This document shows positions 56,500-59,809 of a stretch of DNA of 64,000 nucleotides, in pieces. Source of the stretch: a virus; the IMG/VR virus record IMGVR_UViG_3300045988_134731, positions 64,001 to 128,000 of that record, one strand, 5' to 3'. The position numbers were made by a program, and so were the translations under genes. The notes beneath the pieces were generated by a model that ran no database searches, was not told the DNA's origin, and saw nothing but the letters and a program-made list of their open reading frames with translations. Position 1 is the stretch's first letter. Each line of letters starts with the position of its first letter.

Positions 56500-57345
56500 A
56501 TGGCAGACACAAAACAATGTTCAGCTACAGGTAAATTTAAACCTACCGTTAGAGATTTCTACTCTACACAATCAATGCTTTATGAGCATGATAAAAAATT
56601 ACCTATGAGTAAAGAAGTAGTTGACAAGTATTTTAAAAGGTTGTTAAAGAATTATAATAACGACCATAGGTTGGCTTTCATACATTTATGTATGGTTTTA
56701 GATATGTATTATGATGAAGAAACGTATTTAAAATGTGTTGAAAAATATGGTAATAATTTTTTAGGTAATTATACTAGAATAATTAATAGAGATAAAGCAT
56801 TTAAAGGATTGACATCATTAGACAATATGCTTACTTATGATGGTGTAACCAATATTATTACTGGAGAAACAGTTACTTCAAGTGAAATTGTTGACTTTTG
56901 GGGTAAGGGATTCCAAGATGATGAATATGAATTACTTCAAAGAAAATATGAACAATACACAGACAATTATCCATCTAAAGCCATTCAAGAGGTAAATTTA
57001 ATTAAAACAATATGTATGTTAGAAGTTTTAAGAGAAAGAGCTATAGTTAAGAATGACCAAAAAGCATTTGAAAACTTAACTAATCAAATTTCTAAACGTA
57101 TGGAAGAATTAAATGTTTTACCATCTAAAATGAGTAAATATGGTGAAGACGATAACTTAAGTTATGGAAATTTAATAGCAATAATAGAAAAAAATGAACC
57201 TATCCCAGATGTTCATCCAGAATACGATGATGTTGATAGAATTAAATGGTGGTTAAATCGTTATTTCTTAAATCCTATCAAGAAATTAATGAATAATGAT
57301 TCAACTCCTTATACAGAGGAGGATGAAAAGGGATATGGAGAATAA
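56500..57345 (+). CDS. putative terminase small subunit (assigned by position only)
   Basis: 281-aa ORF whose stop overlaps the terL start. No motif recognised. Confidence 0.35.
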   Translation: MADTKQCSATGKFKPTVRDFYSTQSMLYEHDKKLPMSKEVVDKYFKRLLKNYNNDHRLAFIHLCMVLDMYYDEETYLKCVEKYGNNFLGNYTRIINRDKAFKGLTSLDNMLTYDGVTNIITGETVTSSEIVDFWGKGFQDDEYELLQRKYEQYTDNYPSKAIQEVNLIKTICMLEVLRERAIVKNDQKAFENLTNQISKRMEELNVLPSKMSKYGEDDNLSYGNLIAIIEKNEPIPDVHPEYDDVDRIKWWLNRYFLNPIKKLMNNDSTPYTEEDEKGYGE

Positions 57346-57808
57346 GTTAAAATGTAAACAAAGAAAAAAATTAAAAAAAGATTCATATGAAAATTTATTA
57401 GATGGTGTAAAAATATGGACTGAATATTTTAGAAAAAATCCACATAGATTTTGTATGGATTTTTTAGGAATTAATCTATATTGGTTTCAACAAGTATTGC
57501 TTTATATGATGAATATAAGTACTTCAATGGCATTTATTGCATCGCGTGGTTTGGGAAAATCGTTCTTAACCGCTGTATTCTGTTGTTGTAGAGCAATATT
57601 ATATCCAGGTTCAAAAATAATAGTTGCATCTGGTAATAAAGACCAAGCAGGATTGATTATAACTGAAAAGATTGAAGATTTACGAATGAATTATCCTGCA
57701 TTAGCAAAAGAGATAAAGAAAATTCAAAATAATAAAGATAATGTTAAATGTATTTTTAAAAATGGTTCTGTAATAACTGCAATAGCATCTAATGATGGAG
57801 CTAGAGGT
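57335..57808 (+). CDS. terL: terminase large subunit, exon 1
   Basis: ASRGLGKS (Walker A-like), ending ...SNDGARG. The ATG at 57335 overlaps the upstream stop. Confidence 0.7.
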
Positions 57809-58125
57809 TAAGTTTAGCCGTCTAAAAGAGAAATTTTTTAGATTATTAGAGGGATGTATCGGTTCACTAAGTGAATAATAATTTTATGTTAAGACAGTAT
57901 AAAATTAAAAGTGAGTCCTCCTATTTGTATGGGATAATACCGAGAGCAGTAATATCTAATACTGTTTGTAACGCATAAGGAATGAACGATAATATGAGAG
58001 TAATAATTTCCTCACGAGCTTCCTCCCCTTAACAGATAATGCTGAAGGTGAAAATATATGCTGAGCTTACATGATGGTAAAATGTAAGAACTATAAGATA
58101 AAAAGCTTATAGGGTAACAAAACTG
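57809..58125 (+). ncRNA. putative group I self-splicing intron 1 (317 nt, no ORF)
   Basis: Stops occur in all frames. The upstream exon ends in T and the intron ends in G. Conserved blocks are shared with intron 2. Removal restores ARG-LRGNVLVADEF. Confidence 0.55.
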
Positions 58126-58280
58126 TTACGTGGAAATGTGCTAGTCGCAGATGAATTTAGGCTTATCAAATTAGATATAATAAATTCAGTTTTAAAACAA
58201 TTCTTAACAAATCCAAGAAAACCTCCATTTTTAGAAAAACCCGAATATGCAGATTATCCATTAGAATCAAATATGGAGAT
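58126..58280 (+). CDS. terL: terminase large subunit, exon 2
   Basis: LRGNVLVADEFRLIK supplies the Walker B / DE motif that exon 1 lacks. It ends ...LESNME(I). Confidence 0.6.
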
Positions 58281-58689
58281 AAAAAGATATGTCTCAATAT
58301 AAGTAAAGTATAAGTGCTTATATTTAAAATAGGGTAAAATCGGTCAAATGTATAGTGATATACATGGTAAGGAAGGCTAAGTCTATAAAGTTAATTAATG
58401 ATTTTTACGTTATAGATAAGCTAATACCGAGATAACTTATATGTTTAAAAACTATAAGTATTGTAACGCATAGGGGCTGAAACTGTTTGAGGGATAATTA
58501 CCCTCCACAGAATATAATGCCGTAATTATTTTACATACTAAAATTAGTATCCCAAGAGTATCCTACATTCATTATACAGAATTTAGAGAATGAAAATATA
58601 TGCTAAACTGGGTTAGAATTGACTAACCGATGAAAATGAGGGAAACCTCCAGAGTATAGGATAAAAAGCCTATAGTTAATAACAAATTG
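58281..58689 (+). ncRNA. putative group I self-splicing intron 2 (409 nt, no ORF)
   Basis: Same boundary rules (T before, G at the end). It shares ATACCGAGA...TGTAACGCATAGG, ATAATGC, GAAAATATATGCT and ATAAAAAGCyTATAG...AACAAAwTG with intron 1. Confidence 0.5.
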
Positions 58690-59809
58690 ATATCTTTCTA
58701 GTGCATGGTTAAAAGTTCACTGGAGTTATGAAAAGTTTATGACTATACTAAATAGAATGTTTGAAGGTGGTAAGGCATTTGCTTGTGCAATTCCTTATTT
58801 AGCTTCTTTAGACCATAAACTTGTATTAAAAGATAAGATTGAAGAAGATAAAGAGGACATGGGCGAATTTGTATTTAATATGGAATATGGAGCTATATGG
58901 CATGGACAAAGTGGTGATTGCTTCTTTAATACATCTGATATGTTAAATGCTAGAGTTTTAAAGAATTGTTATTATCCATTAACAGATGACGACTATAGAA
59001 ATCCGGAAGAGAAGAAAAAGAAATTAAGACAAATGCCTAAAAAGAAAGACGAAATAAGAATAATTTCGGTCGATGTAGCCACAGCAAAAGCTAACAAATC
59101 AAATAAAAATGATAACTCTATTTTTACTTTATGGAGATTACTTCCTAGTGGAAATAATATTATTAGAGAAGTTGTTTATATGGAATCACATAATGGTATG
59201 AAATTTGAAAAACAAGCCACTAGAATTAAGAGATTATATACAGAATTTAAAGCTGATAAAATCATTATAGATGGTGGTGGATTAGGTATAGCGGTAATAC
59301 AAGAGATGGAAAAATCATCTTATGACGAAGGTATCGATGAACATTACGAACCTTTTGGTATTTATGATATGAGTACACAATCAAAAGATTTTGAACCTTT
59401 AAAGAATGGTATAAATTGTATATATGTGATTAAAGGGAATCAAAAAATAAATAATGATTGTGCCGTATATCTTAAAAATGCTTTTGGTAGTAAAAAAATA
59501 AGATTATTAATAGAAGAAAATGAAAAAAGAGGAGACTTTAGTAAAGACTTAAAATATCATCAAGACGCTGAATATCATGCTAATAAAATAGCACCATTTA
59601 TTCAAACATCTAATTTTATATTTGAATCAATAAACTTAGATTATGAAACTATGGGGAATGGTGATATAGTTCTTAAAGAAAAAGGAAGAAATCGTAAGGA
59701 TAGATATTCTTCTATTACTTATGGTAATTATTTAGCAGAATTGATAGAAAGAGATATAAGAAAGAAAAATAGGAATAAGAAAAAGAGACATATTTTCTTA
59801 GCTAATTAA
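58690..59809 (+). CDS. terminase large subunit, exon 3 (nuclease domain)
   Basis: Begins (I)YLSSAWLKVHWSYEKF. The three exons total 1749 nt (583 codons including the stop) and are in frame. Confidence 0.65.

Follow-up and report, generated by a model that had tools for sequence, protein, structure and literature searches.

Two putative group I introns in a phage large terminase gene belong to a family allied to the Twort orf142 introns

How is a large terminase subunit to be made from a gene whose reading frame is broken twice by segments full of stop codons? The question is raised by the terL gene on a 64,000-nucleotide (nt) stretch of viral DNA, positions 64,001 to 128,000 of the IMG/VR record IMGVR_UViG_3300045988_134731 (the whole of this stretch is termed the window here), in which inserts of 317 and 409 nt separate three pieces of terL. 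The evidence described below indicates that the two inserts are very probably authentic group I introns excised from the terL mRNA, and that both belong to one large phage family allied to the introns of the Staphylococcus phage Twort gene orf142.

The terL reading frame lies in pieces of 474, 155 and 1120 nt. Together they make 1749 nt in frame, and once joined they encode a protein of 582 amino acids (aa) without internal stop codon. Exon 1 (57335–57808; all exon, intron and nuclease-gene coordinates given here are on the plus strand) starts with ATG at 57335, encodes residues 1–158 including the Walker A motif GLGKS, and ends with GGT at 57806–57808; an in-frame TAA follows directly at 57809. 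Exon 2 (58126–58280) encodes residues 159–210, LRGNVLVADEFRLIK, with the Walker B motif VLVADE. Exon 3 (58690–59809) encodes part of residue 210 through residue 582 plus the stop codon, and begins at the invariant motif YLSSAW. The predicted spliced junctions are GCTAGAGGT/TTACGTGG between exons 1 and 2, and ATGGAGAT/ATATCTTTC between exons 2 and 3. Exon coordinates, frames and the sum had been proposed in a first-pass annotation made from the sequence alone, and sequence and translation bear them out. The inserts have stops in all three forward frames, as that annotation also stated, and are indeed ORF-less (ORF, open reading frame): no intron-encoded homing endonuclease is present, and the longest internal ORF is 35 aa.

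The spliced protein matches the Pfam families Terminase_6N and TerL_ATPase. A tblastn search with the joined TerL matched 153 phage records, in 116 of which one place accounts for at least 80% of the query, and the best relatives are those of SPbeta-like Clostridioides phages (phiCD211, 42% identity) and YonF of SPbeta (40%). A four-way alignment of the joined TerL with phiCD211 TerL, SPbeta YonF and PhiSepi-HH3 has zero gaps at either junction: junction 1 reads ASNDGARG/LRGNVLVADEF against VSNDDARGYRANVLIVDEY, and junction 2 reads ESNMEI/YLSSAW against EENKEIYLSSGW. The spliced protein is thus colinear with uninterrupted terminases, and exon 2 carries the Walker B segment, as predicted. The protein sequence by itself fixes junction 1 only to within ±1 nt, and the rule for group I introns, a U at the 5′ splice site and a terminal G, picks the boundary originally proposed. 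Each upstream exon closes with a T and each insert with a G (G58125 and G58689), and the exon boundaries that had been chosen are the ones that fit.

An intron-less allele was located in a scan of one genome per species. This locus, L007, on contig CAJKKJ010000084 of an uncultured gut Firmicutes metagenome-assembled genome, holds a contiguous 1749-nt terL that is base-for-base colinear with the spliced reconstruction, at 92.5% DNA identity and 95% protein identity, which makes both inserts precise insertions. Site 1 is preceded by T in the window but by C in L007, and site 2 by GAGAT in the window but by GAAAT in L007. At both sites it is the window version, not the L007 version, that pairs with the intron guide sequence. 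Substitutions between the two alleles are densest beside the junctions, with 8 of 30 nt directly after junction 1 and 7 of 30 directly before junction 2; the other 30-nt bins within 90 nt of the junctions have 0 to 6.

Both inserts contain a full group I core of paired (P) and joining (J) segments, P3-P4-P5-P4′-P6-P7-P3′-P8-P7′, with all strands located and with the P3/P7 pseudoknot. In each, P7 is A(C)GCAUA/UAUGCU with a bulge next to a G-C pair, the candidate guanosine-binding site, and J8/7 is the 6-nt A-rich segment AAAAUA. A feature of subgroup IA is also present, i.e. a covarying stem between P7 and P3′ that closes just before CACGAG. This IA-type P7.1 is one compound domain here, not two hairpins.

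BLAST searches with the inserts show that the 3′ ~100 nt are conserved at 80–89% in many unrelated phages, and the match in Bacillus phage AR9 sits in a DNA gyrase A gene that is annotated as a join of three pieces. A megablast search of window positions 50000–64000 against 50,697 phage records gave short unrelated or intron-core matches only. Family loci were collected from IMG/VR with a pattern consisting of an exact AAAATATATGC, then 28–58 nt, then GATAAAAAGC, and at least 119 stretches were found. The host genes are terL, RNR, gyrase, tape-measure (TMP) and portal genes, and the reading frame is always restored. The family plan begins with P3 (6 nt), a 4-nt J3/4, P4 (UCGGU) and a short or extended P5, and several members have an endonuclease ORF between P4 and P4′. 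There follow P4′ (ACCGAG), the P6 hairpin, GUAACGCAUAG (J6/7 and P7), and a stem around UGAA-hairpin-AAUAUAAU, then CACGAG. The 3′ part comprises P3′, P8, AAAAUA (J8/7), UAUGCU (P7′), P9, a hairpin around GAUAAAAAGC, and GAUAACAAAnUG.

Covariation in the family was assessed on 84 distinct members, in a register set only by unpaired anchor motifs, with complementarity unselected, and with a shuffled-partner control. Pairing is 91% for P3 (59% with shuffled partners), 97% for P7.1 (62%), 87% for P8 (64%) and 94% for P9.1, the 3′ hairpin (55%). P4 is paired at 97% and P7 at 100%, figures for which the control is not comparable, because the anchor pattern itself dictates three central pairs of P4 and four of P7, but not the closing pair of P7, which varies. 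The first pair of P4 is U-A in 51 members and A-U in 25, and the P7 pair beyond the bulge is A-U in 59, G-C in 23 and C-G in 2, with the bulge itself C in 59 and A in 25. Each variable helix position shows several Watson-Crick pair types. P6, P7, P7.1, P8, P9 and P9.1 were recovered independently by RNAalifold from a MAFFT alignment of 44 members, and 29 of its 38 pairs have compensatory changes. P3 and P7 cross, which constitutes the group I pseudoknot.

A covariance model termed R1 (192 positions, 39 pairs) was built from 44 phage sequences, none from the window. It scores 137.8 bits (E=6e-35) on intron 1 (57936–58126) and 88.2 bits (E=1e-21) on intron 2 (58423–58688). R1 also matches two of the Twort orf142 introns, I2 at 44.9 bits (E=4.5e-10) and I3 at 30.5 bits (E=3e-6); Twort I1 gave no match at E<=1. 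The AR9 gyrA gene is matched in two places, the locus L036 described below in three, and the RNR, Staphylococcus phage 6ec and Terrisporobacter loci in one each. Anatomy, family covariation and the precise absence of both inserts from a close allele all support the group I introns proposed in the first-pass annotation.

Several observations nevertheless weigh against this reading. The Rfam group I covariance model, named in advance as a search that could speak against introns, gives a background score on both inserts: Rfam 15 yields no group I match in the whole window at the gathering threshold, and RF00028 yields none in 57700–58800 even at E<=10, where the sole Rfam match is a chance one to SpF56 sRNA (E=2.9). 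No convincing P10 helix was found for intron 1, whose P1 requires a bulged G. Folding of intron 2 could suffer from its insertions, which lie in P5 and within the 3′ strand of P7.1. Minimum free energy folding of the whole inserts gives modest z-scores (−1.55 and −2.30) and did not recover the core, although the latter is expected for a pseudoknotted AT-rich ribozyme. In addition, no experimentally spliced member of this exact family was found. The validated introns of SIOphi terL are not members; R1 detects none in the terL gap region of SIOphi (KC699836) and gives only a 13-bit chance match elsewhere in that record.

The Rfam result can be accounted for. In a positive control with RF00028, the three Twort orf142 introns reached 100.9, 97.4 and 63.6 bits. 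The model finds none in about 25 tested family members, including AR9 gyrA: Rfam gave nothing at E<=1 on AR9 gyrA, the RNR gene of Clostridioides phage pCD1602_4 and 6ec, and unrelated matches only on 20 further family loci at the gathering threshold. Because the control worked and the family loci were all missed, the background score reflects a blind spot of RF00028 and is not evidence against a group I fold. As a side observation, locus L074 has on its minus strand (1784–1902) an unrelated Rfam match, Fusobacteriales-1 RNA, at 82 bits.

Of the alternatives, the one that survives best accepts genuine group I introns and differs on autocatalysis: splicing may rely on a protein cofactor or host factor. 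Several Bastillevirinae introns are spliced in vivo and not in vitro (PMC11878797). The missing clear P10 of intron 1 would fit such a dependence, as would the weak helices of AT-rich RNA, the G+C content being 32% and 29% in the two inserts and 25% in the window. On the other side, the allied Twort introns self-splice. A need for a cofactor thus seems rather unlikely, but should be kept in mind.

It is much less likely that the inserts are decayed, splicing-dead group I remnants and terL a pseudogene in a defective prophage. The silence of RF00028, the extra hairpins inside P5 and P7.1 of intron 2, and the loss of any endonuclease ORF from both introns would be in keeping with decay. However, the three exons are intact, in frame and 95% identical at the aa level to the intron-less allele, the cores fit the family consensus at 138 and 88 bits, and helices have been kept by compensatory changes between the window introns and their L036 orthologs. 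Nor would a dead allele be expected to give ORFs confined to exon 3 on about 62 contigs, among the cluster members listed, of up to ~140 kb.

Least credible, and highly improbable, are non-intron mobile insertions, such as elements resembling miniature inverted-repeat transposable elements or insertion sequence remnants, and a terminase made as three polypeptides. The insert boundaries show neither terminal inverted repeats nor target-site duplications; the inserts carry covarying structure of an RNA type, and wherever the same family interrupts RNR, gyrA, TMP and portal genes, the frame is restored. As for three polypeptides, ORF finders do list products of 171, 54 and 356 aa, and a GGAG lies 13 nt upstream of an ATG at 58739, but the separate ORFs would lose the invariant IYLSSAWLKVHW encoded upstream of that ATG, and exon 2 has no ATG, its only in-frame start being a GTG at 58138, 4 codons into the exon. 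A group II intron is rejected by size (317 and 409 nt against ~600 nt or more), by the lack of an Rfam group II match and by the group I structure, and an intein by the TAA that is the first codon of insert 1 and the stop 7 codons into insert 2.

Returning to group I introns as the preferred reading, a pathway can be proposed. Each intron would fold into its P3–P9 core after transcription, and the internal guide would pair with the end of the upstream exon to form P1, in which a U·G wobble marks the site of cleavage. The nucleophile attacking the 5′ splice site would be an exogenous guanosine that sits at the G-C pair beside the P7 bulge, and the freed 3′-OH of the exon would then attack after the terminal G, a step that in intron 2 may be aligned by a 5-base-pair (bp) P10. 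The product would be a continuous 1749-nt mRNA for the 582-aa TerL. Stops at or close to the intron starts (TAA at 57809, TAA at 58300) might keep ribosomes off the ribozyme. That splicing occurs is an inference, and it may be fully autocatalytic.

Intron 1 (57809–58125, 317 nt) is a group I intron that lacks an ORF, is of the IA Twort-like type, starts with the in-frame TAA and ends with G58125. In its putative P1, the last 6 nt of exon 1, AGAGGU (57803–57808), pair with GCC(G)UCU, the predicted internal guide GCCGUCU at 57817–57823, with a U57808·G57817 wobble and one bulged G. A likely P2 hairpin follows the guide (57821/57824–57842), as read from the sequence. The next elements are set by fixed-register family covariation: the P3 5′ strand GAGGGA (57849–54), J3/4 UGUA, and the P4 5′ strand UCGGU (57859–63). 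The P5 region with its extension spans 57864–57938, and has 33 nt more in the L036 ortholog; P4′ ACCGA (57939–43), the P6 hairpin (57945–66) and J6/7 follow. The P7 5′ strand A(C)GCAUA (57971–77) has C57972 bulged, and G57973 belongs to the candidate guanosine-binding pair. In the P7.1 domain (57978–58018), AGGAA (57978–82) pairs with UUCCU (58008–12), and the conserved CACGAG follows. The 3′ part consists of P3′ UUCCUC (58020–25), P8 (58026–50), J8/7 AAAAUA (58051–56), P7′ UAUGCU (58057–62), P9 (58066–88), P9.1 (58091–112) and the tail GGUAACAAAACUG with the terminal G58125.

Intron 2 (58281–58689, 409 nt), also ORF-less and of the same family, ends with G58689; the exon frame running into it meets a stop at 58300–58302, 7 codons in. 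Its predicted P1 pairs the last 5 nt of exon 2, GAGAU (58276–80), with GUCUC (58291–95), with U58280·G58291 at the cleavage site. A clean putative P10 of 5 bp joins GAUAU (58286–90) to the first 5 nt of exon 3, AUAUC (58690–94); the P10 strand lies directly 5′ of the P1 guide, so that the internal guide would be GAUAU-GUCUC (58286–58295). P2 (58297–323), the P3 5′ strand UAGGGU (58330–35), J3/4 AAAA and P4 UCGGU (58340–44) are followed by an extra hairpin (58348–65), by P5 with an inserted hairpin (58372–425), and by P4′ ACCGA (58426–30). P6 is at 58435–59, and the P7 5′ strand at 58466–72 has C58467 bulged. The P7.1 domain is enlarged (58473–58558) and is followed by CAAGAG; GGGGC (58473–77) probably pairs with a split 3′ strand, GCC (58519–21) plus CC (58551–52), and the domain contains an inner hairpin with GAGGG/CCCUC plus a 29-nt inserted hairpin (58522–50). 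P3′ AUCCUA (58560–65), P8 CAUUC/GAAUG (58566–92), J8/7 AAAAUA (58593–98), P7′ UAUGCU (58599–604), an extended two-hairpin P9 (58608–52), P9.1 (58655–74) and a tail with the terminal G58689 complete the intron. The part from 58608 to 58689 is 89% identical to the AR9 gyrA introns, which also have the two-hairpin P9.

The first-pass annotation had noted ordered blocks shared by the two inserts, and most of these prove to be conserved core elements: ATACCGAGA is P4′, TGTAACGCATAGG is J6/7 plus P7, GAAAATATATGCT is J8/7 plus P7′, ATAAAAAGCYTATAG is the loop and 3′ strand of P9.1, and AACAAAWTG is the 3′ tail. The block ATAATGC does not belong with them, since it lies in the P8 loop of intron 1 and in the P7.1 domain of intron 2 and is thus not homologous. 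The P7-P3′-P8-P7′ order that had been proposed for intron 2 from GAGGG/CCCTC and ATGCCG was misplaced, as both sit in the peripheral P7.1 domain. BLAST of intron 1 against intron 2 finds short core blocks only. A recent duplication of one intron is ruled out, with only core blocks common to the two and closer relatives of each elsewhere. In a search of the 64-kb window with the core motifs and R1, only the two introns were found; a match at 63440–63463 (6.6 bits, E=5) is noise.

In close relatives, terL has zero, one, two or three introns, some with LAGLIDADG ORFs. The IMG/VR contig L036 has the same terL, at about 89% exon identity, with three introns: orthologs of introns 1 and 2, and a third at Walker A (GLG/KS). 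The third intron, on the reverse strand at about 2292–2750 in locus coordinates, is changed in a compensatory manner in P7, which reads GAAU/AUUC rather than GCAU/AUGC. The terL genes of L008, L034, L053 and L132 are also split at the Walker A site. Window and L036 share 77% identity in intron 1, where P3, P5, P7.1 (three pairs), P8 and P9 are kept by double, i.e. compensatory, changes. In the window region 58186–58789, intron 2 is 97% identical and the preceding 95 nt of exon 96%, against 87–89% over most of the gene, a pattern that suggests a recent lateral exchange of intron 2 with co-conversion of its flank.

Locus L130 lacks intron 2 and has, at precisely the intron-1 site, a 1.25-kb intron (1249–2500) that carries a 277-aa LAGLIDADG ORF between the 5′ splice site and P3. 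L132 has an intron at Walker A (about 1072–2358) with a 308-aa LAGLIDADG ORF. Both loci contain R1 matches, and the pCD1602_4 RNR insert holds an HNH ORF. The window introns are probably endonuclease-less derivatives or relatives of LAGLIDADG-bearing introns. The position of the two sites, just upstream of Walker B and of YLSSAW, would fit homing into conserved targets; the introns now lack endonuclease genes, and relatives carry LAGLIDADG ORFs at the same sites. Other fetched terL genes are split at about residues 74/75, 101, 106, 270 and 351, and the sites after residue 158 and within codon 210 are seen only in this phage lineage among the fetched loci. In this gut SPbeta-like lineage the number of introns varies from zero to three over three catalytic-motif sites, LAGLIDADG genes being present or absent, and the range of occupancy offers a convenient natural series for the study of intron gain, intron loss and endonuclease decay.

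The cluster of terL proteins at >=90% identity has 229 members, with lengths of 582 aa, 350/356, 419/424, 460 aa and others; the 350/356-aa forms correspond to the ORF within exon 3. Public gene callers give such terL genes as unnamed fragments of 158 to 460 aa. The terL gene of the window should be called as one three-exon coding sequence. Intron-split essential genes of phages and prophages are likely to be systematically mis-annotated, since RF00028 misses the family. Mildly notable are the size of the family, its escape from the standard Rfam model, and the complete series of occupancy states in this phage lineage; knowledge of how group I introns function is unchanged.

Two free-standing homing-endonuclease-like genes lie in the region, gene 1 at 55178–56143 and gene 2, a 44%-identical paralog, at 61511–62509, downstream of the portal gene. 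In both products, treble-clef zinc fingers are combined with a nuclease-like domain at the C terminus; they have matches to phrog_559, phrog_9084 (‘homing endonuclease’) and phrog_7140 (‘intron encoded nuclease’). The introns had been described as lying between two nuclease-like genes; both genes exist, but neither adjoins terL, as a yonG-like gene lies between gene 1 and terL, and the portal gene between terL and gene 2. The gap between the exonuclease gene and the yonG-like gene is 197 nt in L007 and L036 and 1456 nt in the window, where 55045–56499 holds an insertion of ~1.26 kb made up of ORF 55178–56143 and a small ORF at 56165–56329. Gene 1 looks like a free-standing mobile endonuclease cassette that is independent of the introns. 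Its candidacy as their partner is weakened: it is absent from L007, which has no introns, and from L036, which has three, and its presence thus does not track that of the introns. The endonuclease genes are best treated as context only, any link to the introns being hypothetical.

One may ask whether the introns and the two phrog_559 genes bracketing the packaging module form a system of trans-homing and self-protection. The endonucleases would then cut the intron-less terL of co-infecting relatives at the Walker B and YLSSAW sites, and the resident introns, by disrupting these sites, would confer immunity and be copied into the competitor during repair. Such an arrangement is doubtful at present. 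In locus L030 (about 751–3474), a portal homolog is seemingly split (residues 5–302 and 302–473), with a phrog_559-type homolog between the parts. A family intron core is present on the same contig, and the intron family therefore appears to invade portal genes as well.

With respect to the wider gene order, window positions 1–47000 contain nearly unbroken minus-strand ORFs, and a plus-strand late/packaging module begins near 48.9 kb. The layout is consistent with an SPbeta-like genome of ~135–142 kb, which is the size of the longest contigs with identical proteins.

The 155-nt exon 2 lies between introns with similar 3′ domains. Exon skipping has been described in multi-intron phage genes, Twort orf142 and SIOphi (PMC11878797), and by analogy exon 2 might be left out of some transcripts. 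Exons 1 and 3 alone (474+1120 nt) do not add up to a multiple of 3, so that the product would be frameshifted, and this could modulate the supply of TerL.

How does the locus compare with known systems? Group I introns in phage terminase genes are documented (PMC3984707, PMC2504315), and terL genes of Bastillevirinae contain two or three, those of SIOphi having been spliced in vitro and in vivo (PMC11878797). The earlier remark that two introns in one terminase gene are unusual was thus overstated, in view of these published multi-intron genes and of the three introns in L036. The finding is sound but ordinary: introns of this kind have been recorded before, also with several in a single terminase gene. 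The likeness to the Bastillevirinae (SIOphi, phiAGATE) extends to associated phrog_559 endonucleases; phrog_559 proteins, with a Vsr-like fold, are found inside Bastillevirinae terL introns, and short internal exons and exon skipping are reported there as well (PMC11878797). The differences are that SIOphi terL has no R1 match, that the hosts are Herelleviridae as against an SPbeta-like phage, and that the Bastillevirinae introns were found with Rfam and GISSD models.

Collaborative, or trans, homing (PMC3984707) also combines ORF-less introns with free-standing endonuclease-like genes nearby in the same module. The locus differs from it in that gene 1 is missing from L036, which has both introns plus a third, and in that neither endonuclease-like gene is adjacent to terL.

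Further parallels are found in introns of Gram-positive prophages and phages, i.e. term-IVS1/2 of the B. cereus group (PMC2504315), AR9 gyrA and pCD1602_4 RNR. These are also of IA type, in frame, and placed in the most conserved motifs. An in-frame stop at or near the start of the intron, documented for bacterial group I introns (PMC2504315), is shared as well, and different P1/internal guide sequences fit different sites. The window introns differ in their insertion sites and in that both are ORF-less. The AR9 gyrA and pCD1602_4 RNR introns belong to the same family as those of the window, as judged by R1.

The Twort orf142 introns I1–I3 (subgroup IA2) provide the structural reference; the crystal structure of the I2 ribozyme has been solved (Golden et al. 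2005, as cited in PMC3984707), and the annotation of the Twort record reads ‘contains group 1 introns’. The window introns sit in another host gene and in another phage lineage. They have one compound P7.1 stem (UGAA-hairpin-AAUAUAAU, then CACGAG), whereas Twort has separate P7.1 and P7.2, and RF00028 detects the Twort introns, at 64–101 bits, and not the family of the window. In both systems several ORF-less introns interrupt one late gene, and there is extra structure between P7 and P3′. P7 has the geometry A(C)Gxxx/xxxCU with a bulged C, and J8/7-P7′ has the layout (G/A)AUAU-A(GUC/UGC)U-GAAC. The loop of the P9 hairpin is of the GGAAAC type, and there are also a terminal hairpin and, with G as its last base, a GUAACA(U/A)AAUUG tail, with the tail GUAACAUAAUUG common to both.

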